This document shows, piece by piece, positions 8,955 through 36,509 of a stretch of DNA of 64,000 nucleotides. The stretch is from Escherichia phage JLBYU08. Made by a program: the position numbers and the translations under genes. A model generated the notes under the pieces. The model saw only the letters and a program-made list of their open reading frames with translations. It was not told the DNA's origin and did not search any database. Numbering within the stretch: position 1 is the stretch's first letter; each line of letters begins with the position of its first letter. The DNA lies in sequence record OK272482.1. One strand, 5' to 3'.

Positions 8955-9146
8955 ATGACACTAAAGTTAACAATTCCAGACAGCTTTTCAGAAGACTTTA
9001 TCCCAGAAATGATGGGTAAGATGCGATCATTGCTTGATCAGATCGAGGAAGCTGTTTGGGAAGACGATGCTGTAGTGGCTAACGAGCTGGTAGATAAGTG
9101 TAAAAGTATTATTGATGCAGTTGAAGAATACCACGGAGGTTTTTGA
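8955..9146 (+). CDS. hypothetical acidic protein
   Basis: ATG 8955 in frame with track ORF 8943. Confidence 0.4.
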   Translation: MTLKLTIPDSFSEDFIPEMMGKMRSLLDQIEEAVWEDDAVVANELVDKCKSIIDAVEEYHGGF

Positions 9147-9760
9147 TGGATATTATTGTTCTTAACGCCCCACCCAGCAGTGGTAAGGATCACATTGCAG
9201 ATCTCTTGTTGGAAGCTATTCCTAACTCACACCACCGTGAGGTTAAGGAGATGCTCTTCAGTGTGGCAATTAAGGCAGCTGGTGTAACTCCTCAACTCTG
9301 GAATGCACTTTATGACCGCCACTACAAAGAAGAGCCTTGCCCTTTCTTAATGATAGACGGCAAGCATGTTTCTCCGCGAGAATGGATGATCCATTGTAGT
9401 GAAAATCTGATTAAACCTATCTTTGGTGAAGATGCTTTCGGTAAAGCCGCAGTCGCATCTTTGAAGAAAGATTTCCCTAAAGGTAAAGGGGTTGTTGTTT
9501 ACTCCGATGGTGGATTCAAAGAGGAGCTGGCATGCCTTAGCGAGTACGCGTACAGCACAGGTGGAGATCTGTTGTTGTTCCGTATTCACCGTGTCGGATA
9601 TGACTGGGGAAATGATTCCAGAACCTATCTAAGTCTGGAAAAGAACGGAATAAAAGGAATTGAGTTCGATGTTGTAAACCCTGAAGGTGCACCTTGGGAA
9701 TGTGCATCGGAGATTGTGTGCAAGTATATTGATGCTAAAGAGGCCCAAGAAGAATGTTAA
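9143..9760 (+). CDS. P-loop kinase, dNMP kinase-like
   Basis: N-terminal NAPPSSGKDHIADLL resembles T4 gp1 LSGVKRSGKDTTADF. Confidence 0.5.
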   Translation: MMDIIVLNAPPSSGKDHIADLLLEAIPNSHHREVKEMLFSVAIKAAGVTPQLWNALYDRHYKEEPCPFLMIDGKHVSPREWMIHCSENLIKPIFGEDAFGKAAVASLKKDFPKGKGVVVYSDGGFKEELACLSEYAYSTGGDLLLFRIHRVGYDWGNDSRTYLSLEKNGIKGIEFDVVNPEGAPWECASEIVCKYIDAKEAQEEC

Positions 9761-19385: not shown

Positions 19386-20174
19386 ATGGGTCGAGCTAAA
19401 GAAACAAAACGCATGCGTGATGAAGCTAGAGAGGCTCGCAAATCTGATCGCCTGCGTAAGGCTGCTGAGAAATTTGCTGACGAAAGAGAGCACACCGCTC
19501 CAGCTCTCCGACCAATGAATAAGAAGCAGCAAAAGTATCTTGATTATCTAGGGTCACGTAAGATTATTATTGTAAACGGTGTGTTTGGATCCGGTAAGAC
19601 ATTCATGGCATCTGCATATGCAGGTGATCTTCTGCGTAAGAACGAGATTGATAAGATTATTGTTGCACGTCCTTACGTTCAGACAGGAAAGACTTCAGGA
19701 TTTAAACCTGGAAATGCAATGCAGAAACTGTGGCCCTATCTTCGAAGCATGATGGACACGATTTGTCGTCGTGTTGGCAAAGGTGCTTTTGCCGCAATGC
19801 TGGGAGACGGTCAGAACAGCCGTATCGAGATTTGTGAAGTTGAAAGCATTCGTGGTCGTAGTTTCGATGAGCGATGCTTTGTCCTGATTGACGAGGCACA
19901 GCAAACTAACCCTGAAGAAATGTTGTCAATTATCACAAGGATCTCTGATCAAGCCACCCTTGTAATTATGGGTGATAATAGCCAACGTGACATCCCTGGT
20001 AAATCTGGCCTTGCATGGGTGACGGATTTCTTTACTCGTCATCCAGATCCTGAGGTTGGAATGATCAGCTTTGATAGTCCAGACGATGTCGTTCGTTCTG
20101 GGTTGGGTCGTCAGATCGCACTCAATCTTATTGAGGATCGTGCAAATCATATTTGGACCCCTGTTTCCGAGTAA
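19386..20174 (+). CDS. phoH: PhoH-like ATPase
   Basis: Walker A GVFGSGKTF and PhoH-like layout. Confidence 0.85.
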   Translation: MGRAKETKRMRDEAREARKSDRLRKAAEKFADEREHTAPALRPMNKKQQKYLDYLGSRKIIIVNGVFGSGKTFMASAYAGDLLRKNEIDKIIVARPYVQTGKTSGFKPGNAMQKLWPYLRSMMDTICRRVGKGAFAAMLGDGQNSRIEICEVESIRGRSFDERCFVLIDEAQQTNPEEMLSIITRISDQATLVIMGDNSQRDIPGKSGLAWVTDFFTRHPDPEVGMISFDSPDDVVRSGLGRQIALNLIEDRANHIWTPVSE

Positions 20175-22599: not shown

Positions 22600-22839
22600 A
22601 TGTACAAGTCATTTTCAATCTACTCAAGACAGGCGAAACACTACACAGAGATCCTGATCACTCAGAAAAAATCTGTGGAAGGTGAGTGGGAATATCACCA
22701 TAAAATGTTGCGTCCAGACTGGGTTTTTGATAGACTTATTGCTATGATCCCTCTCGGAGAAGTATACCCTCTGACAGCCCATCGCGATGCTTGGGATTTA
22801 ATTGATTACATAGATTCATTTAAGGAGCCTAGATTATGA
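22600..22839 (+). CDS. hypothetical protein
   Basis: ATG 22600 after GAGGGGG. Confidence 0.45.
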   Translation: MYKSFSIYSRQAKHYTEILITQKKSVEGEWEYHHKMLRPDWVFDRLIAMIPLGEVYPLTAHRDAWDLIDYIDSFKEPRL

Positions 22840-23234
22840 AGATTGAGATTACTAAAGAAGGTAAGAAAGTGTCCGGCAACTATGCAACAGTAATTCGGGA
22901 TTTAATGTTTGAAGCCACCAAGATCGGTACATCTAAAGTTGGTCAAACTGTTAGTGTGAAAAGTAATATCTCCACAGGAGAGAAGGTATTCATTGTGGTC
23001 AAAGGGCAGGATCCCGTGGAAGGAACAGTGGGCCGAGGTGGCTACCTGTGCATTTCTGAAGAGCCGCGTATGTTAGTGGCTGACGCTACTATGGGTGGGA
23101 AACGTGTGTGCGAGGCGGATGAGGTAATGATTATCCAACCTGTTGATCCAGATGACCCAGCAACTTGGGTGGTAGGAAATGAAATCTTCTCTTTAGAAGA
23201 GTTATCCTTCCCAGCACCGCGCTCTGTTCAGTAA
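22836..23234 (+). CDS. hypothetical protein (MKIEIT family-like N-terminus)
   Basis: 132-aa ORF; N-terminus MKIEITKEG resembles the small acidic paralog family. Confidence 0.45.
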   Translation: MKIEITKEGKKVSGNYATVIRDLMFEATKIGTSKVGQTVSVKSNISTGEKVFIVVKGQDPVEGTVGRGGYLCISEEPRMLVADATMGGKRVCEADEVMIIQPVDPDDPATWVVGNEIFSLEELSFPAPRSVQ

Positions 23235-23271: not shown

Positions 23272-23505
23272 ATGAAAGTTAAATTTCTTACAGATTTAGG
23301 GTACCCTTCCTTGGTTGACTGTGTTGGTAAAATTGTGGAAGCAAAACGGCTATCTGCAAACGAGAATGTTGTCCTGGTTAAAGGGAAGGATTTACTAGCT
23401 GCAGGTGCAGAGTCTGGCAGGATCTCTCCTGATTATATGTATTACCTATCTTTAAGTAATCTGCCAGAGCGAGGCGGTAAAGGCCTTGAAGTTGTGGAGG
23501 AGTGA
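23272..23505 (+). CDS. small acidic protein, MKVK paralog family
   Basis: MKVKFLTDLGYP...GKDLLAAGA...EVVEE; same pattern as 26922 and 27139. Confidence 0.5.
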   Translation: MKVKFLTDLGYPSLVDCVGKIVEAKRLSANENVVLVKGKDLLAAGAESGRISPDYMYYLSLSNLPERGGKGLEVVEE

Positions 23506-23510
23506 CAGGT

Positions 23511-24047
23511 ATGCTTCTGATTAACTGGGAAGACCTCTATGGGGACAAAGACCCTGTTGCGTTTGTTGATCGTAGGTGGAGATACACTGAAGAACAACTG
23601 GCGGCAAAAAATTTAACTGCAAAACGCAGAAAGATCATCCAGTGCAAGTACAAATACGCACAGTTTGCTGCAAAAGTGTCTCCACAAATCGAGAGCTTTG
23701 TGCTTAAATTGTATGACGAGTACCTCAAATTCAAATTGGATTTTGTGCAGGTGTACCGTGCACAGGTACGACCAGATACCAACATATGTAGATGGAAGGT
23801 TGTTTGTGAAGGTAAAGATTTGCCGCTCAGCTTGACAATTGAGTGGCGTTATGGGTATCATGAGTGTGGTCTGTATGATATTTGGGATGTCATTGTAGAT
23901 CCTGCTAAGCATCTGAACACAGAGGAGCTGGAATATATCAATAAGGTTATTCTCGATATGTTTTTCAGCTACACACATGAAAACTCTGAGAAAGAACGGG
24001 ATAATTTTCTTGACACCCTCAGCGACCATTTGCAGTGTACAATTTAA
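23511..24047 (+). CDS. hypothetical protein
   Basis: ATG 23511 in frame with track ORF. Confidence 0.45.
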   Translation: MLLINWEDLYGDKDPVAFVDRRWRYTEEQLAAKNLTAKRRKIIQCKYKYAQFAAKVSPQIESFVLKLYDEYLKFKLDFVQVYRAQVRPDTNICRWKVVCEGKDLPLSLTIEWRYGYHECGLYDIWDVIVDPAKHLNTEELEYINKVILDMFFSYTHENSEKERDNFLDTLSDHLQCTI

Positions 24048-24065
24048 CCTACAAAGGGAGGACCA

Positions 24066-24293
24066 ATGAGTATAAATGTTGTGCTAATAGCTTACCTGGT
24101 AATGTCCGTTATAACAGCGGTATTCTTGACAGGTGTATGCATCGTGTCCAGACGAAGGGTGAAGTTTGATGATTTTATCACCATCATTACTGCTGCACCT
24201 TTTTGGCCTGTTGTTATCTTCATCGTAATAATGTGCCTAGTTTATTACTACAAGAATATCAGGAAGGAGAGTAGAGATGGAGACCGCACCTAA
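24066..24293 (+). CDS. small membrane protein (2 TM)
   Basis: Two hydrophobic segments. Confidence 0.45.
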   Translation: MSINVVLIAYLVMSVITAVFLTGVCIVSRRRVKFDDFITIITAAPFWPVVIFIVIMCLVYYYKNIRKESRDGDRT

Positions 24294-24512
24294 AACTATC
24301 TATACTGTTCTTAAAGAGATTGCGTTCTACGCAGATCTTAGCCAGGCACCTTTATGGGAAAAGAGCATGTATTTAAAATGGTGCGTTAATTTAGGGAGAC
24401 CTTCTAGTGTTTCAAGCCATGTTTATTGAGATGCTATCTGGGATATTGTTACTGGTAGCCATCTTAGGTGGTGCAGTTCTGATGTATAACTATCTTGAAA
24501 AAGGAGACAGCA

Positions 24513-24698
24513 ATGGCAAAAAATAAATCTTTAGAGCAGGCTGAAAACCTTCTCCACGAGCTGGTAAAGGAGTGGAAAGTTGAATACTTAGATTTTAATG
24601 CACGAGAGGGTGAAGATTATTGGCCTACGGAGCGCTCAGAGGGCGAATGGTATCAAGATTTCATAGAGTGGTTATATCAGACGTGCGATGAGGGGTGA
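24513..24698 (+). CDS. hypothetical protein
   Basis: RBS AAGGAGA before ATG 24513. Confidence 0.45.
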   Translation: MAKNKSLEQAENLLHELVKEWKVEYLDFNAREGEDYWPTERSEGEWYQDFIEWLYQTCDEG

Positions 24699-25156
24699 CG
24701 ATGTTTGTTAAATATGTAAAAACGTGCCTCAACAATCTTGGTAGAGAGCATTGGTACACCTTGCTTGAAAAAGGAGAAATTTTAACAAAATCTGGAAAGA
24801 TAACTTTAATACCCTTGGACGATAAAGACCCGTCACTACTTATCATAGATGATTACGTTACAGGTGTGTCGTACGAGGTCTCTGTGGGGAGGTTAATACG
24901 CAGATCTGGAGGTCCTTATGACCGAAGAGAGTATGTTTTCGATTCTATTACAGAGAAGGAAGATCCGTCTCTAATGTTTAGGATGGTAATCAGAGATATG
25001 AAATCATCTATAAATAGGATCGTAAAGGACATTAAGGAACCTTTTAGAGTAAAAGTTAAGAAGTTTTTCGATTCTAAGATTAACATACTCGCCGTTGCAC
25101 TAGGTGTAGTTCAACTTCTGTTAATTTTGCACTATTTTGGACTACTATTTAAGTAG
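24695..25156 (+). CDS. hypothetical protein with C-terminal TM anchor
   Basis: 153 aa; C-terminal hydrophobic segment. Confidence 0.45.
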   Translation: MTMFVKYVKTCLNNLGREHWYTLLEKGEILTKSGKITLIPLDDKDPSLLIIDDYVTGVSYEVSVGRLIRRSGGPYDRREYVFDSITEKEDPSLMFRMVIRDMKSSINRIVKDIKEPFRVKVKKFFDSKINILAVALGVVQLLLILHYFGLLFK

Positions 25157-25218
25157 TGGTTGAGATATGGCACAAAGGATGTGCCATAGTGAAATAAACT
25201 AAGAAAGAGGTAGAGAGA

Positions 25219-25566
25219 ATGCCAAAGATTAAAACGTTATTAATGTGGGTAGCTGTTTTAGCTTTTATAGGGTACTGGACTTGGGAAACTGAATTAAAAG
25301 ATATCGGATATACCAGTCTTGAGAGCAAGGCGTGCATTGGTATAACCGATGCATTCAGGCAAAATGCTATGGATCACGAATGTGTTGATGCAGATATAGA
25401 TGAGAAACTGTCTAAGGACAAGGATTTTTACCATGGGCATGCTTTGCTTGATAGTGGTGACACTGTAGAGTTCTGGTCGTGGTTCCGTGAAGATGGAACA
25501 ATAAAAACAGCAGTAAAGATCTCTAACAAAGAGTTAATGCTGTTGCAGCAGAAGGAGGCTCAATGA
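25219..25566 (+). CDS. hypothetical membrane-anchored protein
   Basis: N-terminal TM (LMWVAVLAFIGYW). Confidence 0.45.
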   Translation: MPKIKTLLMWVAVLAFIGYWTWETELKDIGYTSLESKACIGITDAFRQNAMDHECVDADIDEKLSKDKDFYHGHALLDSGDTVEFWSWFREDGTIKTAVKISNKELMLLQQKEAQ

Positions 25567-25850
25567 TCTGGATATCCTATACTGATGGCACCATGCTGTA
25601 TACTGCAGGTACCCGATATGAGGTTCAGGAGGACGATAAAAAATTTATCGTAAAAACATTTGACAAGGACGACAACCTTTTGCTAGAATTGACTTACAAG
25701 GTTGGAGAGGTATCCGATATCCAATTGGATTGTGGTCATAAAGATAATCCACTCAAAAAACCTGGAATAGGCAAGGCTTCAGAAGAACGTTTGTCTCGTA
25801 TTGCAGAAAGCGTTTCTCCCCAAAAATCTAAGAAGAGGAGTAGAAAATGA
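25563..25850 (+). CDS. hypothetical protein
   Basis: 95-aa ORF, overlapping stop/start with neighbours. Confidence 0.45.
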   Translation: MIWISYTDGTMLYTAGTRYEVQEDDKKFIVKTFDKDDNLLLELTYKVGEVSDIQLDCGHKDNPLKKPGIGKASEERLSRIAESVSPQKSKKRSRK

Positions 25851-26047
25851 GTGACAAAATTCTTAAATTTAATACCTACTATGAGAATGATTTGAACGAT
25901 CTGTATTATATAGTGCGTAGCGAAAACCCGAATGTAGTACTGTTTTGCCGAGAACCTTTCAAAGGAGAGGAGATTGAATCTACCATGAATGTGGATCAGA
26001 TTTCACACCTGCTGCTCCTTGGATCATTAAAAGAGGCAGTATTCTAA
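25847..26047 (+). CDS. hypothetical protein
   Basis: 66-aa ORF. Confidence 0.4.
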   Translation: MSDKILKFNTYYENDLNDLYYIVRSENPNVVLFCREPFKGEEIESTMNVDQISHLLLLGSLKEAVF

Positions 26048-26066
26048 ACCAGGATGGAGGGTTTTT

Positions 26067-26252
26067 ATGAAGCACTATTGTCTGTCTGGTAGGATGGGTG
26101 CAGATTGTGATTGGGTTTTCTTAAAACTTGTCAGTATTCGAGAGTTCATTCCAGAGGAAGAGCAAGAAAGTGAGCTGATGTCATGGATCAACCATTACGG
26201 TAACACTTTTCGGCATGTTAAGGTGGAAGAGTTGCCAAGCGAGGCTGATTGA
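26067..26252 (+). CDS. hypothetical protein
   Basis: 61-aa ORF. Confidence 0.4.
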   Translation: MKHYCLSGRMGADCDWVFLKLVSIREFIPEEEQESELMSWINHYGNTFRHVKVEELPSEAD

Positions 26253-26347
26253 CTATGATTGCATCAATATTAACGTTTATGGGTGGCGTGGCATTCGGAT
26301 TCATTGTTTGCCTGTTTATAGTGATTATGTCTATGCGAGGCTGAATT

Positions 26348-26641
26348 ATGAAACTTTTTGAGTGGTTTAAAAAGTTTAAATATAAAGCTGTAGCCATCGT
26401 GCCGTGGTCCATTCAGTGGGTGGACGATGATGGATTACCAATTCCAGGTGATAAAGACACGGGATACTGGATCATGCTTGAGAACGGGTTCGGTAAACGG
26501 AAATATTCCTGCACGGATACCTCAGGAGCATCTTTTAGGAGAATTCCTGGGTATAAATGTATGATTGTGTGGAAGATGTCTGGTGTACCTCCGGCCAATG
26601 CACAATATCTTACTACCAATCCAACCACAGAAGAGGACTAG
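26348..26641 (+). CDS. hypothetical protein
   Basis: 97-aa ORF. Confidence 0.45.
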   Translation: MKLFEWFKKFKYKAVAIVPWSIQWVDDDGLPIPGDKDTGYWIMLENGFGKRKYSCTDTSGASFRRIPGYKCMIVWKMSGVPPANAQYLTTNPTTEED

Positions 26642-26643
26642 TA

Positions 26644-26925
26644 ATGAAAAAGATTTGCGATACAGATGTGGAGTTCAAGGTGTGTAGTAAGGAGACCTAT
26701 TGGGAAGTGAGACAAAAGGTATATTTGTTTGGACTTATCCCATATTGGTCTAAATTCTACTGGGGAGCAGATGAATTAGGGAGATATGCCACCAAAGCTA
26801 TGGCGCTTATAGGTATAGCTGAATATATTGCTGCTAGGGACAGGGCTGGAAAAACCTGCTACTACACTGCTGACGAGATTCGTAACAGTGTTTACGTCCC
26901 ACAACCACCTGATGGAGACCGTTGA
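26644..26925 (+). CDS. hypothetical protein
   Basis: ATG 26644 right after upstream stop. Confidence 0.45.
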   Translation: MKKICDTDVEFKVCSKETYWEVRQKVYLFGLIPYWSKFYWGADELGRYATKAMALIGIAEYIAARDRAGKTCYYTADEIRNSVYVPQPPDGDR

Positions 26926-27149
26926 TGAAAGTTAAAGTTTTAGATTCAAGCTTCTATATTGGTCAGGAGCCTTTAGTAGGGAAAGTGTTTACTGCTGTCC
27001 CTAACGAAGATTACCCTGACCTTTTAAAAATAAAAGGGGCAGATCTTATTGCCGCTGGTGCATCTCAGGACTGCTTTGACAGCCAGTGGGACTACAACTT
27101 TGCCCTAGGTGAGGATGTAGAGATAGTGGAGGACGATCATGAAGGTTAA
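26922..27149 (+). CDS. small acidic protein, MKVK paralog family
   Basis: MMKVKVLDSSFYIGQ...LIAAGA...VEIVEDD. Confidence 0.5.
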   Translation: MMKVKVLDSSFYIGQEPLVGKVFTAVPNEDYPDLLKIKGADLIAAGASQDCFDSQWDYNFALGEDVEIVEDDHEG

Positions 27150-27393
27150 AATTCTTGATTCTAACGTCTACTTGGGGCAATCCTTCCTGAAAGGAAAGGT
27201 CGTCCCTGCGGTATACTTTGAAGGGTTGCCGTGGGATGATCCTGTGCGGCAACATCACAGTTATGTAGGCCACAACGTGGTGTTTATTTTAGGATCAGAC
27301 CTGATCACCGCTGGTGCACCTGAATATTATTTCGGGGAAGAGTCCTATTATGCCTTTGGGGTAGGGTCAGATGCAGATATTGTAGAGCTGTGA
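27139..27393 (+). CDS. small acidic protein, MKVK paralog family
   Basis: MKVKILDSNVYLGQ...LITAGAPE...DIVEL; paralog of 26922. Confidence 0.5.
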   Translation: MKVKILDSNVYLGQSFLKGKVVPAVYFEGLPWDDPVRQHHSYVGHNVVFILGSDLITAGAPEYYFGEESYYAFGVGSDADIVEL

Positions 27394-27405
27394 TGGGTAA
27401 CCGTT

Positions 27406-27804
27406 GTGAAAAATAAACTGTTCAAAGTTACAATGAAAATTCGCGGAGCTTGGAGCGTAAAGCAAGGGCGTATCCCAGAATTTGAGAAAGACTTCTACGT
27501 AGTCTCCACCTCGGAGGAGGCTGCATGCTGGCAGGCTGGCTATGCCTATGCAAGAACCTGGTACGAAGGATACCAGACTGGGGGCTATGACGGAGAAATT
27601 GTCAGCAAGGGTGTAGAAGAAATTAATGTGTTGACAAGTGAAAAAGTTTTTGTTATAGTGCATCCAGATTCCAGAGTGAAGCATTACTGGAATGCCAGAA
27701 CAAAAACTTGGACACCGTTTGCAGATTCTGCTACTCCACTTTTAAACCAGAAAGCTCTTGACTCTACCCCAAGTTATGGGGTTGTTGAAGAAAAGCTAAA
27801 CTGA
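27406..27804 (+). CDS. hypothetical protein, paralog of 29615..30010
   Basis: Shares HPDSRVKHYWNARTKTWTP versus HPHSNIAYYWDVLNNEWTP; GTG start assumed. Confidence 0.45.
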   Translation: MKNKLFKVTMKIRGAWSVKQGRIPEFEKDFYVVSTSEEAACWQAGYAYARTWYEGYQTGGYDGEIVSKGVEEINVLTSEKVFVIVHPDSRVKHYWNARTKTWTPFADSATPLLNQKALDSTPSYGVVEEKLN

Positions 27805-27821
27805 AACAGTGAGGTGTCACC

Positions 27822-28112
27822 ATGATGGATTTAATTCTAAATATTGATAACGCAGGAGAGTTTAAAGACGATGGTGTAACAAGCATGGACAAACCCTGCT
27901 CTGCTAAGGTTGACTCAAAATGGACCTATAAGTTTGATGGAGAGATCTTCGCAAATGATGAGAAGGTTGTAGATGCTGCAGCCATTTTGAACGCTCTAGG
28001 TTACGACCCTGTGAATTCTTTGATCAAGGATCCTGTTGAGTTTGCGGAGTATGTTCGAAAAATGGCAGATCTTGCTGTAGATATTTTAAAAACTATCGAC
28101 AACAAGCTATAA
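27822..28112 (+). CDS. hypothetical acidic protein
   Basis: 96-aa ORF. Confidence 0.45.
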   Translation: MMDLILNIDNAGEFKDDGVTSMDKPCSAKVDSKWTYKFDGEIFANDEKVVDAAAILNALGYDPVNSLIKDPVEFAEYVRKMADLAVDILKTIDNKL

Positions 28113-28117
28113 AACTG

Positions 28118-28146
28118 TTGACACAATGCTTCAGCTATAGTATTAT
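28118..28146 (+). promoter_or_regulatory. sigma70-like promoter (TTGACA-N17-TATTAT)
   Basis: Consensus hexamers immediately upstream of the HPF homolog. Confidence 0.55.
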
Positions 28147-28198
28147 TGTTTTCAAAGAGAGATGGTTGTTACTCTCTCTTCCTTAAAAGGAGCACGTT

Positions 28199-28516
28199 AT
28201 GCAAATTGAAATCACTGGCAACGTAGAAATCACTGAAGGTATGGTGTCTTTCATTTCCCACAAAATGTCTAAGCTGGAGCGTTTGCACCCCTCTGCCAAC
28301 TATGCACGTGTGAGTGTAAAAGTTGAAAATGATCACCAGGAAGTTATGGCGTTCATTTTTGACAATTCTGGAAAAGAAGTTATTGCCAAGGCTAAAGGCA
28401 GTGATGCTTACGAGGCAACTGACCGTATGGTAGATGTTGCAGCACGTCAGCTGGCTAAATGCGGTGGAAAGAAAGGTAAGGGGAAAGGCAAAGTAAAGAT
28501 TGACTTTGGAGAATGA
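28199..28516 (+). CDS. hpf: ribosome hibernation promoting factor / RaiA-like protein (S30AE family)
   Basis: MQIEITGNVEITEGM...KLERL...VKVEN...GKEVIAKAKGSDAYEATDRMVDVAARQLAK aligns along its length with E. coli HPF; own promoter and RBS AAAGGAG. Confidence 0.7.
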   Translation: MQIEITGNVEITEGMVSFISHKMSKLERLHPSANYARVSVKVENDHQEVMAFIFDNSGKEVIAKAKGSDAYEATDRMVDVAARQLAKCGGKKGKGKGKVKIDFGE

Positions 28517-28653
28517 GGTGCTACAATGGGTGTGATTAAGAAATTAGCCCCAAATGTAGAGATTGCATGCTTTGAAATTATGTTTGCAATCGCAGTTGTA
28601 GTTAATGTGTTAGGTTACGGCTATTAATATCAAATAATTGAGGAGACCTCTAA

Positions 28654-28923
28654 ATGAAAATTAAATTATTCCAAACTGAGCTGGCAGACAAAAATTGTGG
28701 ACTGGTTGAAGGCATGATTGTTGAAGCACAACCAGTGGACTATATGAAGGTGGTTCGTGATGCCCTAGGTGAAGGTTTTGATCTGATGGAGCCAGCTCTG
28801 CGAGAAGATGTTATCGAGATGGCTAAAAAGCACACACCTGAAGGTTTGGTGGTGTTTGTTGCACCGGGTAACGGAGAAGAGTTGATTGTAACTCCCGATG
28901 TGTATGAGATTGTAGAGGAATAA
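28654..28923 (+). CDS. small acidic protein, MKxK paralog family
   Basis: MKIKLFQTEL...YEIVEE. Confidence 0.5.
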   Translation: MKIKLFQTELADKNCGLVEGMIVEAQPVDYMKVVRDALGEGFDLMEPALREDVIEMAKKHTPEGLVVFVAPGNGEELIVTPDVYEIVEE

Positions 28924-29014
28924 TCCTGCTTGGATTAGCATACTTCCTCGCTAAGGAAGATTTGTAATTATTTGTGGGAAAGGAGTCCCAATCTCTTACC
29001 AGAGGTGATACTAT

Positions 29015-29278
29015 ATGATTGTTTATTTTAAAACTTCAGGTGGATACCCTGATTCTCAAAGCTTGATCGGAAAAACGTGCACAGCATACTCACCTCTTGA
29101 TGAGGAGGTAAGCGATATTTTACGAAATATGTATCGGATTGACCCCCAAGAAGCCTTTGATCAAAACCTTGTATTTGTCAAGGGCTCGGATATGAAGTCT
29201 TTGGGAGCATTCCCTGAAGCAGATGATGATGCCGTTTATTCGTTCATGACTCCTTTTGAAGCTATGGTTGTTGGGTGA
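29015..29278 (+). CDS. small acidic protein, paralog family
   Basis: ...FVKGSDMKSLGAFPEADDD...; related to 23272 and 26922. Confidence 0.45.
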   Translation: MIVYFKTSGGYPDSQSLIGKTCTAYSPLDEEVSDILRNMYRIDPQEAFDQNLVFVKGSDMKSLGAFPEADDDAVYSFMTPFEAMVVG

Positions 29279-29282
29279 TAAT

Positions 29283-29615
29283 ATGAAAGTACGCTTTATT
29301 GGTGAAACAATTCCTGTGCATCTCCGGTCGCCTGAGGATTCTGCAGATCTTGCATCTCAAAAGGCGAGAGGTTATGATAAGAAAGTAACCTCAACCGATG
29401 TAGTGCTTGAGGCTACTAGTCTACCTGACCCTGCTGCATTCTTTAATCATTATGGGTACTATTTCAGCAATCTGATGAATATCGGTGAGCTTGTGTTTAT
29501 TAGTGGTGGAGAAATTGTTAGCAAGCTTGGCGGCGATCCGGATATCTTTCATGAAACCTGTCCTTTTGCATTTGTGGTAGGTTCAGATGTGGAAGTTATT
29601 GAGGAGGTGCGGTAA
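29283..29615 (+). CDS. small acidic protein, paralog family
   Basis: MKVRFIGE...VEVIEEVR; ATG 29283 chosen. Confidence 0.45.
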   Translation: MKVRFIGETIPVHLRSPEDSADLASQKARGYDKKVTSTDVVLEATSLPDPAAFFNHYGYYFSNLMNIGELVFISGGEIVSKLGGDPDIFHETCPFAFVVGSDVEVIEEVR

Positions 29616-30010
29616 TGGTAAGCCTATACCGTGTTGAGTATAGCTCAGATACTGTATACAACGTAAGAAGCAAAGATCGCAGCGACAGAGTGCAAGAAAT
29701 GTATGTTCTTGCCGACAGTCCGTTATCTGCAGCGTTCAAGGCAGGGGCTCTTGCATCTCGTTGGAAATTTGAAGGTGGATCTTCCTATGAAGAAACCCTT
29801 GAAGATTCTGTTGTTATTTCTTCTGTAGAGGTTTCAGATGACTACGAAGGGAAAAAGTTCGTAATGCGGCACCCACACAGCAACATTGCGTACTACTGGG
29901 ATGTTCTGAACAACGAGTGGACCCCAGATCTTCAGAAGGCTACTGTGCTAACACCGTTTTTGGCAGATAAGTTCCCACCAGAAGGTAATTTATCCGCACT
30001 GTTTCAGTAA
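29615..30010 (+). CDS. hypothetical protein, paralog of 27406..27804
   Basis: Shared HPxS...YYW...WTP block. Confidence 0.45.
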   Translation: MVSLYRVEYSSDTVYNVRSKDRSDRVQEMYVLADSPLSAAFKAGALASRWKFEGGSSYEETLEDSVVISSVEVSDDYEGKKFVMRHPHSNIAYYWDVLNNEWTPDLQKATVLTPFLADKFPPEGNLSALFQ

Positions 30011-30089
30011 TTTTCTTGCACACAGGTGTTGACAACGCCAACCCTGTGTGAAATAATACCTTCATCTTAATAAGACAGGGGACCGATTG

Positions 30090-30347
30090 ATGAAGATTAA
30101 ATTGAAAAACCTTGAAACGGCAGAGATTCAGGACGGTGTTGATTTCCGTTCTAAAGATGGTGACATCTTAGAGGTAAATATTCCAACCTACGAGCTGATT
30201 AAAGGTTTTGGCAACGTTCCGGAAGAGGATATTACAGAAATTCTTATGATGTTGATTCTTGACGGAACTGTGTTTGTAGGTGAAGGTGAGAACGCTATTG
30301 CAATCCCAGGCCATTTTTATGAAGTAGTTGACGAAGAGGTGCTGTAA
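30090..30347 (+). CDS. small acidic protein, MKxK paralog family
   Basis: MKIKLKNLE...YEVVDEEVL. Confidence 0.5.
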   Translation: MKIKLKNLETAEIQDGVDFRSKDGDILEVNIPTYELIKGFGNVPEEDITEILMMLILDGTVFVGEGENAIAIPGHFYEVVDEEVL

Positions 30348-30698
30348 ATGAAAGTAGAAATTACCGGTTTTGATGTGAATGTGGTTCCGGAAGATATTTT
30401 AGCTAAACTTCCAGAAGGTTTTGGTAACGGCGTTGTGGTGGATGCTGTTCCTCCTACCAAAGACATTCTGCTGCAGTATGGTGTAGCAGAGGAAGATGTC
30501 GATAAAGTTCTTACAATGATGGCAATCGATCGTGTTGTCGTTGTTAAAGGTCTCGATAATTTTGAGAGTGATCCCCTGATTATTCGTGGAGATGACTACA
30601 AAATCATCGATAATGAAGGCCAAGAGTTCTATGAACCTTGTGCAGAAGATATTCTTAACTTATTACTGGAAGCAGGTACCGAAGAGGAGGACGAATAA
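30348..30698 (+). CDS. small highly acidic protein, paralog family
   Basis: MKVEITGFD...; C-terminal EAGTEEEDE. Confidence 0.5.
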   Translation: MKVEITGFDVNVVPEDILAKLPEGFGNGVVVDAVPPTKDILLQYGVAEEDVDKVLTMMAIDRVVVVKGLDNFESDPLIIRGDDYKIIDNEGQEFYEPCAEDILNLLLEAGTEEEDE

Positions 30699-31027
30699 TG
30701 AAGATTGACCCGTTACTGAAGGCTCGTGCAGAAAAAGCGTACACCATTAAGCTGACCAACCTGGTTCCTACTTGTCATCCAGATGTAGGTTGGCCTGAAG
30801 GTCTGGTAGAGGGGACTGTAACAGCTGCATACCTCCCTAACATCAAATACCTTATGGAAATCTTGGAGCTGGATGAGGAAACGGCAGAAGAGTTCCAGTT
30901 GGACATGAAACAAAGTGGGACTCTGGTTATTCACGGGTGGTATAATACTAAAGACGCAGAAGACCCTCTTGTAACTTCTAATCTGGCATATGAAATCTTA
31001 GGACCTTTGAACCTGGGGGAAGACTAA
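30698..31027 (+). CDS. hypothetical acidic protein
   Basis: 109-aa ORF. Confidence 0.45.
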   Translation: MKIDPLLKARAEKAYTIKLTNLVPTCHPDVGWPEGLVEGTVTAAYLPNIKYLMEILELDEETAEEFQLDMKQSGTLVIHGWYNTKDAEDPLVTSNLAYEILGPLNLGED

Positions 31028-31314
31028 TGAAAGATCTGGTTAAGATTAAGATTAAAGATACCAACGGCGAACTCAGCCATTTTGGAATTAATGATGGTGA
31101 CGAGCTGATCGCACACCTGCCTACCAAGGAAGTTGTAAGCAAAGCAGTTGCCGGAGAAGAAGATGCAATGCAGGCTGCAGGTGTGGATGAAAACTATGTA
31201 GCCATGTGCATGTGCCGAGACCAGGTTGTTCTGTATAAAGCGTATCGACCAAACGGAGCCACGGAGTGGCTTGTATTCCGACCCGAAGGATATGAAATCT
31301 TAGAGGCACTATGA
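31027..31314 (+). CDS. hypothetical protein
   Basis: MKDLVKIKIKD...YEILEAL. Confidence 0.45.
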   Translation: MKDLVKIKIKDTNGELSHFGINDGDELIAHLPTKEVVSKAVAGEEDAMQAAGVDENYVAMCMCRDQVVLYKAYRPNGATEWLVFRPEGYEILEAL

Positions 31315-32798: not shown

Positions 32799-33098
32799 AT
32801 GTCTACAAAGGCGGCTAAATACTCCTACATGCCATCAACCTCTGCAGAGGTAGACTTTAGTTTCGATGTGTTTCCACTGTTTGAGGTGGTTCTGGCATAC
32901 CCAACAATACTATCTACTCCCGAATCACTTGTGCCTGTTAAGTTGCAGAACGCTATGCATTCTATGCACTACAACAATAAATGTAGGCACAGATGGTGTC
33001 AGGACGGGGAAAAAGATCTGGATAGTTTGAGAGATTTTGACAGTCACCTTTTGACACCTTTCAGCTACTCCAACCTTGATAAGCCCTCGTGGGTATAG
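32799..33098 (+). CDS. hypothetical protein
   Basis: ATG 32799 in frame with track ORF. Confidence 0.4.
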   Translation: MSTKAAKYSYMPSTSAEVDFSFDVFPLFEVVLAYPTILSTPESLVPVKLQNAMHSMHYNNKCRHRWCQDGEKDLDSLRDFDSHLLTPFSYSNLDKPSWV

Positions 33099-33791: not shown

Positions 33792-34007
33792 ATGAAGATA
33801 GAAATATTTGGTGGAGCTGACAACACTCGTGGCCTGATTTACCTTGAATTCGATGAATCATACCTGCCAGAGGTGTTAAATATAGACTCTGTTGCGGAGG
33901 CTTTGGGAGTAAACCCTAAAGAACTCCACTCTTGTGCTGAGATCGATGGTTGGGAAGAGACCATGAACATTGATTTCAGTGAAGTAGAGGATGAACCGCT
34001 GGACTGA
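33792..34007 (+). CDS. small acidic protein, MKIEI paralog family; last gene of plus-strand arm
   Basis: RBS AGAGGAGA; MKIEIFGGAD... Confidence 0.5.
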   Translation: MKIEIFGGADNTRGLIYLEFDESYLPEVLNIDSVAEALGVNPKELHSCAEIDGWEETMNIDFSEVEDEPLD

Positions 34008-35536
34008 CACACAATTAGCTGCCCGGCTAAAGTGCTGGAAGCACCTATAACACATCTTTCAACTAAATTTCCTACAACCACAATCACTTACCTCCCACAC
34101 ATGACTGTTTGCTTGTTTAGTGAGCAGTCATGCCTTGACATTCTTGCCTATCCTGATAAAATTAAGTTCTTCTCTTTTCTTTTACCGAGTAATTCGGGTT
34201 TTCTGTTCTCTTCGGTTTGAAGGGGTATGGAGATACACCTGAGTGAACAGGGTGAACAACCGAACATTTGGCTATGGCATTAGCATGGCGAAGCGGACGG
34301 GTGACGAAAGAGGGGCCGGAGGACACCAGTCACTGCCATATGATATATGGGTGATAACCTGAAGAGTCTGAATAAGTGTTTAAGTACCAGTCAGAGGAAA
34401 AGGTGAATGGTAGCCGAAGGGGGAGGGGGGGTTTCTTGTATCTTTAATTTGTATATTATGTATACACTTGTAAACCAATCTCATTTGAATTTGTTTACCA
34501 CACAAAGGGGATAGAGACAAATATTATCTATTAAACTTGAATTATTTATAGAAAATACCACAACACCACTTAAGTCTTTGATTTTACACACAAATCCTAC
34601 AGATATTCACCCTCCATATTTAACATACCTGTAACATATTCCATACCCTACCTGTCTGATCAATTCACCCAACCACACCCTCCATATTTTCCCTGTCTGT
34701 ACCACCCCTGCCCCGCCGGGAGTCCCGTCATATCTGGCTTTCCAGCAAATATCACACCCACAAATATCATTGCCTGAAGAGGGTTTCATCCCATAATACC
34801 TGCCTTACCTGAAGAGCGCTTCATATACCCCGTAAATTTTTTTAATTGACCTCCTCCCCGCCGCCGGAGGGGTCGGCTTTTCCCACACAGGCCTGAAGAG
34901 TCAGCCAGAAATATTTGAACAGGTCCAGTTATACCACGATTTTGACCTGACCGACAGGGAGGCCCGAAGGGTCTAGCTTTCAGCTAGAGTCCTTGCAGGA
35001 CCTACAGGAGCGCTGCCAGGCGGACGAAATGGGAATACTTCTCATTCTTATAACAATTCTCAAATATCAAGGCAGTGAGGCAAATTAATAGGTGAGGCCG
35101 TTCACATAGTGGCACAACATTTGCAATCTATTTTGTGTGGGGGAATGAGAATACATATCATTGTGAGAACCATTATCATTACGGGCAATTTAACATAATA
35201 CCCATTATACGCACCACTGACGATACATACAGGGATTGATAACATGGGTTACTGTTTACGCATATAACAATTATATTTCTTACTATTTGTGTGGGATATA
35301 GTTAGCAGCCGATAGATTAGATATTGACCTGCGGACTTCTGACCGTCTAGACGTCTAAACGCCCACACAACAAGGCTTATACATACATCGCTGAATGTAA
35401 ACAGGGCCGCAAAAATGCTACCATACCAGATTGTAAATTTTTCATGCAGCACTTGACAAAGAGGAGAAAAACTTGTCTGACACAATATGACATACTGGGC
35501 ACATTAAACACACTTTAGACTTAATTGACATGCCTG

Positions 35537-35660
35537 ACTGTTTACGCTGTCACTATTCACGCTATTACTATTCACTCCCTTTACTGTTCACGCTCTTACT
35601 GTTTACATGCTTAATGGTTTACATGCTTAATATACTGCATGTCTAATAGTTTACATAGCT
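35537..35660. repeat. iteron-like array, about 7 tandem copies of CT(G/A)TT(T/C)AC(R) with alternating 14/16-bp spacing
   Basis: ctgtttacgct / ctattcacgct / ctattcactcc / ctgttcacgct / ctgtttacatgcttaat / tggtttacatgcttaat / tagtttacatagc read directly. Confidence 0.6.
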
Positions 35661-36509
35661 AACTATTTATACAGATATGATAAGCCATGCCATTCGTTTG
35701 CATGTTAATAATTTATGACATAATATAAAAGCAGGGCAACTATTAGCAGATCTATAGTTGCCTTGCTTGTCATGTCATGATTAACTAAATACAAGGCAAC
35801 TATGATCTGATTAATAGTTTGCAGACAAACTATCACGGGGGTGATGGTTACTGCTTTTATATTATGTCGCGACTCCGTCGCGCCATGCCATTCGTTTGCA
35901 TAGTTGCCTTATTGTTACAGATAAAATAATTGTATTGTTAATTATTTCTTATCTTTCTCTTAGTCATCTAATGATTCCAGTTAGTATAGTAATGTACAGT
36001 AAACATTAGACGACTAAAGATTTATATGCTTATAATAACTTACAGTGACAATTTCGGACTGTTTACGAAAAATGTTGACACCTGAGCCGATTTATGTTAT
36101 GCAGTTTACACGAATAATTATTTTATGCAGGTATTGACTATTCCGTTATTCCATGGTTGGAATAAATACTTAGCAGTCTATAGAATGGTGACGCTACGTG
36201 AATTCTGGAATTTAGTGGCTATAGTTATACTCGATTTTTCACGTAGAACACGCTTTTGTTAGTGTGTAAGTGTATGACTTATAAAGATTTTTAGTTGTTG
36301 ACAAGATACTGAAGATATGCATCAGGTTAAATTTTGTGCAATAGCGGCATTACGTGCAATTTTGGGAGAGAAAACGGGCAAAAATGGCCTTGCTACCACA
36401 CAATGAAAAATTATGCAATAGTTATTTTCCATGTATATTTGTACAGTGTGTGGGATTAATGGCTAGTCAATTATTCCACTTGCCAGGTAGGGCCGTTTAT
36501 GGTAGGAGA

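Follow-up and report, generated by a model that had tools for sequence, protein, structure and literature searches.

Three duplicated families of small proteins in the accessory region of an rV5-like coliphage and a candidate host-specific gene block

How are the many small proteins encoded at about 27-31 kb of Escherichia phage JLBYU08 related to each other, and what might they do for the phage? We analysed a 64,000-nucleotide stretch of this genome (OK272482.1; hereafter the window), in which an initial annotation had described a tandem array of one rapidly duplicating family of acidic proteins, possibly DNA mimics or other anti-defence effectors. The region is part of a long accessory operon of a Vequintavirus and encodes small cytoplasmic proteins of three separate families, here called A, B and C, whose duplications are ancient. 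Two blocks with the gene order A-A-B recur in it, and published transposon data connect the second block with growth on a particular E. coli strain. We see in this block a good but unvalidated candidate for a module that serves counter-defence or host adaptation on particular hosts.

Three families and two A-A-B blocks

The window derives from a Vequintavirus (rV5-like coliphage), and its 26-32 kb stretch is 95-98% identical over the full length to about 115 rV5-like E. coli phages. In the records of these relatives nearly all genes of the stretch are called "hypothetical", the exception being a ribosome hibernation factor. Between 20.6 and 34 kb of the window all genes lie on the plus strand, with good ribosome-binding sites and many overlapping stops and starts. 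Naming genes by their first nucleotide, the order is an A gene (23272) at some distance, then A-A-B, an unrelated gene, the hibernation factor, a small membrane peptide, C, again A-A-B, and finally C-C-C-C. The description as a tandem array of small acidic proteins fits this packed same-strand run and the many products with an isoelectric point (pI) of 4.0-4.7, but 27406 (pI 7.8) and 28199 (pI 8.7) are not acidic.

The families were delimited by all-against-all blastp, by iterated hidden Markov model (HMM) searches over all 468 open reading frames (ORFs) of at least 40 amino acids in the window, and by profile-profile comparison. Within family A pairwise blastp E-values range from 1e-14 to 1e-3, hhalign probabilities are 69-99% for most pairs, and the HMM iteration closes on exactly five of the 468 ORFs. 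The detached copy (23272-23505, 77 aa) matches phrog_5009 with E 8e-36 and 26925 by blastp with E 1e-6. Block 1 opens with 26925-27149 (74 aa, pI 4.05; phrog_5009 E 6e-38), which overlaps the second gene, 27139-27393, by 11 nucleotides; the latter encodes 84 aa with an insert of about 15 residues between strands 2 and 3 and is readily recognized as a relative (phrog_5009 E 3e-32; blastp to 26925 E 1e-14; hhalign 99%). The block 2 copies are 29015-29278 (87 aa with a helical insert; E 2e-35 with the iterated family A HMM, E 1e-4 with phrog_5009) and 29283-29615, which at 110 aa carries the longest insert and joins the family only via the iterated window HMM (E 1e-31), with a 92% hhalign probability to 27139 over the C-terminal half. 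Full-length HMM matches to phrog_5009, a group with no function recorded, are thus found for 23272, 26925 and 27139; PHROGs places 29015 and 29283 in families of their own, phrog_13920 and phrog_13661. phrog_5009 and the related phrog_13367 and phrog_8603 have the same size of 65-90 aa as family A, and the phrog_5009 consensus (MKVKxL..GY.G....GKvV.A....v.I.G.ELI..GA....F.....Y.F..G.E.EIIE.) agrees with it. The difference is that neither a function nor a fold nor a paralogue expansion is on record for phrog_5009, whose members occur elsewhere in single copy or as two to three repeats per protein.

Family B is unrelated to A and C and has two copies, 27406-27804 (132 aa, pI 7.8; phrog_7379 E 2e-73) and 29615-30010 (131 aa, pI 4.7; phrog_7379 E 5e-65), the third genes of blocks 1 and 2, respectively. 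The HPxS...YYW...WTP pattern noticed earlier in the third block members is part of a genuine alignment between them (blastp E 8e-8, 27% identity over 118 aa).

Family C shows weak pairwise similarity (blastp E 2e-4 to 0.3) and becomes evident in a leave-one-out comparison, where each copy was aligned with the profile of the other four plus orthologues and scored 72-87% probability (E 4e-6 to 3e-5) over the full length. Sixteen control proteins from the same region all stayed at or below 6.5%. The first copy, 28654-28923 (89 aa; 83%, E 9e-6, full length), precedes block 2. The other four follow it as 30090-30347 (85 aa), 30348-30698 (116 aa with 29 Asp/Glu and an acidic tail; blastp to 30090 E 2e-4, leave-one-out 85%), 30698-31027 (109 aa; 85%, E 6e-6) and 31027-31314 (95 aa; 87%, E 4e-6). 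The last gene is intact in the window, and its orthologue in the rV5 record (NC_011041) is split into two overlapping ORFs at 9026-9296, by either a frameshift mutation or a sequencing error.

Blastp, HMM searches and hhalign together demonstrate real paralogy that goes beyond compositional bias. The single family defined by MKVK/MKIEI starts does not hold, since there are three families, A and C reach at most 21% profile probability with each other, and B, 27822, 28199, 22836 and 33792 are unrelated. The N-terminal motif MK(V/I)x(hydrophobic) is concentrated in the region, with 11 of 13 window examples between 22.8 and 34 kb. It is also present in the non-homologues 22836, 31826 and 33792 and in 40973 and 55460 on the minus strand, and its presence in unrelated proteins indicates that it marks a first β-strand rather than a family. 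HMM searches found no further family members in the window, including the two minus-strand ORFs with an MKVK start, 40973 and 55460.

The A-A-B order occurs twice, as 26925, 27139, 27406 and as 29015, 29283, 29615, each B gene following directly after two A genes; in block 2 the start of the B gene overlaps the stop of 29283. In a neighbour-joining tree, by contrast, 26925 groups with 29015 at 5% bootstrap and 27139 with 29283 at 8%, while 29015 and 29283 group together at 60%. The recurrence of the block is therefore real, but the positional pairs lack tree support and a single-step, three-gene segmental duplication is not established. The data agree equally well with a duplication of A-B and later, separate duplications of A, or with gene conversion.

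The paralogues are 25-49% identical to each other. Within the genus the dN/dS values of A, B and C (0.05-0.16) do not differ from those of neighbouring genes. Block 2 DNA is present in all 118 records compared, at 93-99.8% nucleotide identity. A divergent 128-kb relative keeps the gene order, with array orthologues 29-66% identical and some neighbouring genes 85-97% identical. In this relative an unrelated 96-aa gene takes the place of B copy 1, and B copy 2 is separated from the C run by an additional gene (98 aa, positions 9092-9388 of that genome) whose product matches Phage_P22_Y8K6 (PF27050). The comparisons show that the duplications are old, the array stable and its genes under purifying selection, so that rapid duplication is unsupported. 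An IMG/VR scan seeded on the hibernation factor returned just two close relatives. Literature searches found nothing on Vequintavirus paralogues, and the rV5 genome paper mentions neither paralogues nor duplication.

Block 1 is missing from one natural isolate. Phage EduardKellenberger (MZ501061) carries a clean 3.8-kb deletion corresponding to window positions 23908-27718, which spans a short imperfect repeat (GTAGATCCTGCTA / GCAGATTCTGCTA) and removes about 14 small genes. At the junction the 23502 gene is joined in frame to the final 29 codons of 27406, and the fused gene is annotated as 'putative glycosidase'.

Predicted folds and wider relatives

AlphaFold models of an A protein (26925, pLDDT 90) and a C protein (30090, pLDDT 82.5) are both SH3-like, with five antiparallel strands forming a small β-barrel. 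In these models the MK(V/I)K start and the (Y)E(I/V)VE end form the first and last barrel strands. The shared terminal motifs noted before thus have a structural counterpart in A and C, but the N-terminal one, as described above, also occurs in non-homologues. The copies differ mainly in the loop between strands 2 and 3, which carries inserts of 0-45 residues; in C two helices are found there, and the inserts of 27139, 29015 and 29283 sit at the same place. The likeness to SH3-like small β-barrels (SH3, KOW/Spt5, PsaE) lies in the predicted five-stranded barrel, whereas the large loop inserts and a helix after strand 3 with a conserved ELIxxGA motif are peculiar to the phage proteins.

Database comparisons added no name to this fold. 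Pfam was scanned with ten of the twelve A, B and C proteins, with 30698 and 31027 together with neighbouring genes, and with 58 family A relatives. No SH3 or KOW model matches the family proteins or the family A relatives, family A has no Pfam family, and the sole match among the 58 relatives is DUF3310 in a single fusion. None of the scanned A, B and C proteins reached the cut-off of a Pfam family or could be named functionally from Pfam, NCBIfam or PHROGs, and searches of PDB sequence profiles with A, B and C returned nothing below E 0.1. A fold search of BFVD with the A model retrieved only uncharacterised small phage proteins; relevant to 29015 is the hit to an 87-aa protein of Shigella phage CM1 (TM 0.81).

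The common barrel raises the question of whether A and C are a single diverged superfamily, with ten genes from one ancestor and C an A-type barrel whose variable loop has grown two helices. Both models are SH3-like with many PDB neighbours in common, the strand order and the insert site are the same, MKxK and YEIVE-type terminal strands are shared, and the genes are adjacent. There is also a weak profile similarity over strands 1-2 (hhalign 20.7%, E 1e-3, 31 columns). On the other hand, profile comparisons between A and C give 6-21% probability and never more, confined to the first 27-31 columns with no match past the first third; neither family's HMM finds the other family in the window, and the SH3-like barrel is a very common fold that has arisen repeatedly. 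A and C may be distant relatives, but we think common descent of all ten genes somewhat less probable than separate origins, and even if true it would leave B, 27822, the hibernation factor, 22836 and 33792 outside.

Families B and C are seen in Vequintavirus-type genomes only (27406 only in Vequintavirus records), and word-indexed protein searches with A, B and C returned only orthologues on contigs of Vequintavirus size. Family A reaches further. When 1.84 billion representative proteins were scanned in full by HMMER with the family A profile, 62 clusters were found, mostly stand-alone proteins of 65-90 aa; a few contain two or three repeats per chain and one is fused to DUF3310. In an alignment of the five window copies with wider relatives, 57 of 58 sequences match phrog_5009. 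Homologues occur in the nin-like region of the temperate phages mEp554 and mEp013, between a primase-polymerase and a RecA-like ATPase in a 42-kb phage, and between recombination and lysis genes in another phage. Family A is present, then, also in modules for early replication or recombination of phages unrelated to this one. The detached copy 23272, whose counterparts are rV5 ORF127 and bas54_0166, clusters with a temperate-phage homologue at 92% bootstrap. Three proteins from metagenome contigs (P0014, P0018 and P0028) are chimeric. In P0014 and P0018 the N-terminal half corresponds to 26925 and the C-terminal half to 27139, and the chimeras also include a temperate-phage-type N-terminus joined to the C-terminus of 26925. 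This suggests recombination between paralogues.

Apparent requirement for block 2 in published transposon data

HIDEN-SEQ, a transposon-insertion study of the Vequintavirus Bas54, has been reported in a preprint (bioRxiv 10.1101/2025.11.20.689424). We mapped its genes to the window by gene order, matching ORF lengths and the hibernation-factor anchor. The family C genes 31027, 30698, 30348 and 30090 correspond to bas54_0146 to 0149 and 28654 to 0153; the block 2 genes 29615 (B), 29283 (A) and 29015 (A) to 0150, 0151 and 0152; the block 1 genes 27406 (B), 27139 (A) and 26925 (A) to 0157, 0158 and 0159; and 23272 (A) to 0166. The 27406 orthologue is annotated from a later start in Bas54 (372 nt versus 399 nt).

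On E. coli K-12 all array orthologues are classified as Non-essential or Intermediate, the Intermediate ones being 0151, 0152 and 0153 (bioRxiv 10.1101/2025.11.20.689424). Comparing K-12 BW25113 with the clinical isolate CFE311, insertions in all three block 2 genes are lost, with log2 fold changes of -6.77 (0150), -6.17 (0151) and -7.16 (0152), adjusted p-values of 0 and zero reads; counts for 0152 drop from 142 to 0, and 0150, which is hit at 25 of 25 TA sites on K-12, receives no reads on CFE311 (same preprint). The block 1 B gene 0157 shows a roughly 4-fold drop (log2 fold change -2.14, adjusted p 0), the change of 0153 (-2.78) is not significant, and the flanking genes 0149 and 0154, the other C genes, the block 1 A genes and 0166 are unchanged (bioRxiv 10.1101/2025.11.20.689424). 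In these data the block 2 orthologues are dispensable on K-12 and required on CFE311; an anti-defence gene would show this pattern together with an identified host defence.

A trivial explanation would be that this depletion is an artefact of polarity, a library bottleneck or mislabelled data, and that the array is ordinary accessory 'dark matter'. There are grounds for caution, as only a single condition is involved, the three block 2 genes are translationally coupled, and the authors of the preprint neither discuss nor validate them: 0150-0152 and 0157 are not mentioned in its main text, and no knockouts of these four genes were made (bioRxiv 10.1101/2025.11.20.689424). In addition, the depletion sheet is titled CFE303 while its command line says strain 311, and the next sheet holds the same numbers (Extended Data Table 8, Data S6). 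We read the sheet as CFE311 because 0063 and 0140, both validated against a CFE311 defence system, are depleted in it, while 0108, which is depleted on CFE303 according to the Methods, is not. The CFE303 results seem to be missing from the supplement and the CFE311 data to be present twice. The signal itself consists of zero reads over 59 TA sites in three adjacent genes with unchanged flanks, and the validated genes 0063 and 0140 behave alike in the same table. No effect is seen for insertions in the pair of A genes that lie upstream of 0157 (-0.30 and +0.98; bioRxiv 10.1101/2025.11.20.689424), so block 1 insertions are not polar on 0157 and simple polarity is unlikely to cause the loss in all three block 2 genes; the authors also report that polar effects are not widespread. 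Altogether we consider an artefact improbable.

A precedent is found in the same operon. A 99-aa gene at 32799-33098 (plus strand), 1.5 kb downstream of the array, corresponds to bas54_0140 by order and identical 300-nt length, and bas54_0140 has been validated by knockout as necessary against DS-28, a predicted defence system of E. coli CFE311 (bioRxiv 10.1101/2025.11.20.689424). Like block 2 it is dispensable on K-12 and shows a similar depletion on CFE311. It differs from block 2 in having been validated with a cloned defence system, and in sequence it is unrelated to A, B and C.

Proposed function and surrounding genes

Starting from what we count as established, namely paralogy, the predicted fold, purifying selection, dispensability on K-12 and loss of block 2 insertions on CFE311, we favour, with some reservation, the reading that A, B and C are accessory effectors that act by binding proteins. 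According to this model they would be neither enzymes nor DNA binders and would be produced early from host-type promoters. They are dispensable on laboratory E. coli, but growth on some wild hosts would depend at least on the second A-A-B block, which most likely neutralises a barrier specific to the strain, for instance a defence system. Within a block the two A proteins probably cooperate with B, and the targets of the two blocks have probably become different.

Several points weigh against this. For the array proteins the searches gave neither a curated family nor a sequence relative in the PDB, and no structural neighbour with a name. The structure models cover A and C. The transposon evidence comes from one host and a preprint supplement with the conflicting sheet labels described above, and the Bas54 genes were assigned by gene order, ORF lengths and the hibernation-factor anchor. 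Polar effects within block 2 may contribute, and a conditional requirement need not mean anti-defence. Early expression is deduced from predicted promoters, as literature searches found no Vequintavirus transcriptome. Finally, family C, the block 1 A genes and 23272 have no phenotype on CFE311, so that the earlier suggestion of anti-defence effectors gains indirect support for block 2 and not for these members.

In its more specific form that suggestion invoked Ocr-like DNA mimicry, in which the proteins would present DNA-like acidic surfaces and so sequester restriction enzymes or other defence proteins that bind DNA. The net charge is indeed -11 for the 74-aa 26925 protein and -21 for the 116-aa 30348 protein at a pI of about 4, one of the blocks is needed conditionally on a wild host, and DNA mimics with several distinct folds are known. 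Like the array products, Ocr and ArdA are phage proteins of small size and high acidity that can be dispensed with in the laboratory, but they have an elongated helical fold with DNA-like rows of carboxylates, whereas A and C are predicted to be compact β-barrels, and no Ocr or ArdA Pfam match above cut-off was found in the A, B and C proteins. Moreover, B copy 27406 is not acidic, and acidity is common among small proteins of the phage, many having a pI of 3.6-5 in rV5 Table S3. In the BASEL study the Vequintavirinae were exceptionally sensitive to restriction-modification systems, without effective protection (PMC8594841). We therefore regard DNA mimicry as very unlikely.

Alternatively, the proteins could be auxiliary parts or regulators of phage replication, recombination, transcription or translation, the host dependence then reflecting host physiology and not immunity. 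SH3-like and KOW-like domains often have such roles, the positions of family A genes next to replication or recombination genes in other phages would fit, the array flanks a ribosome hibernation factor, and 0151, 0152 and 0153 are Intermediate even on K-12. This explanation has to contend with the lack of a KOW or other Pfam match, an acidic pI that speaks against nucleic-acid binding, the viability of a natural isolate without block 1 and the full dispensability of most members on K-12. Total loss on only one clinical strain also looks more like a strain-specific barrier, and we judge an auxiliary role to be unlikely. Packaging of some members in the virion and injection with the DNA, like the internal proteins of T4, was considered because rV5 ORF152, the 30698 orthologue, is listed as 'structural protein (MS evidence)'. 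That call is based on two single-spectrum non-tryptic peptides with XCorr of about 1.8-1.9, no other member was detected, and the gene lies in a non-structural operon; virion packaging is highly improbable.

Returning to protein-binding effectors as the preferred reading, the arrangement resembles what is seen in T4 and other large lytic phages, which carry clusters of small early 'host-takeover' genes, some of whose products bind host proteins. Common to both are many small, individually dispensable genes behind host-type promoters; here, however, a large share stems from three internally duplicated families, with one three-gene unit repeated. A bolder and rather speculative version would see A-A-B as a new three-protein counter-defence module, in which two SH3-like adaptors, with the variable loop setting the target, act with B to disable a barrier of uropathogenic E. 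coli strains; other barriers would be the business of diverged spares, namely the second block and the five C genes.

Two putative strong promoters of the sigma-70 type lie in gaps between genes of the array, on the plus strand. The sigma-70-type site TTGACA-17-TATTAT at 28118-28146, ahead of the hibernation-factor gene, and a site with an extended -10 element at 30029-30057, ahead of the C run, each agree with the consensus at 11 of 12 positions and coincide with the predicted rV5 promoters P144 and P150, respectively. Between window positions 20000 and 36000 eight sites score 11/12, all on the plus strand and all with a perfect TTGACA, while the total number of promoter-like sites there is not above that in shuffled sequence.

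Some genes in or near the array are outside the families. The gene at 27822-28112 encodes an acidic 96-aa protein that matches phrog_12029 only and has no profile match to A, B or C. The hibernation factor (HPF/RaiA, 28199-28516) matches PF02482 with E 1.8e-12 (48.3 bits against a cut-off of 23.7) and carries the same annotation in many relatives. It is followed at 28526-28627 by a gene for a hydrophobic 33-aa peptide (MGVIKKLAPNVEIACFEIMFAIAVVVNVLGYGY), equivalent to rV5 ORF145, which is listed as a membrane protein with one transmembrane domain; its Bas54 counterpart is non-essential (bioRxiv 10.1101/2025.11.20.689424). Of three outliers previously assigned to the family only 23272 is a true member, of family A. 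22836 (22836-23234) matches phrog_5748 only, with profile matches of at most 1.4%, and 33792 (33792-34007) matches phrog_12108 only, its first 11 residues alone aligning to family C; neither belongs to any of the three families. All these genes are on the plus strand.

Downstream, about 2 kb without convincing genes (window positions about 34010-36000) separate the plus- and minus-strand gene clusters, and the cumulative GC skew peaks there. The equivalent region is called non-coding in the rV5 paper and is without tolerated insertions in HIDEN-SEQ (bioRxiv 10.1101/2025.11.20.689424), which suggests an essential non-coding element. A second transposon study did not include this phage group. 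We also observed that 18 records (MG0656xx) named 'Campylobacter phage', with Campylobacter jejuni as host, are about 95-98% identical to the present E. coli phage region; either these hosts appear to be mislabelled or the preparations contained contaminants.

Phages of the rV5 type are used in phage-therapy and food-safety cocktails for their broad host range, and most of their genes are unannotated. Here, twelve "hypothetical" genes are sorted into three families, two of them with a predicted fold, and one block is tied to a host-specific requirement that had been sitting unnoticed in a public dataset. This provides a lead towards a new pair of phage and host factors in conflict and, for a protein family with members in many phages, a first hint at its function. 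If the counter-defence reading of A-A-B is true, family A (phrog_5009), which occurs across many phage types, would be a widespread and so far unrecognised anti-defence domain.

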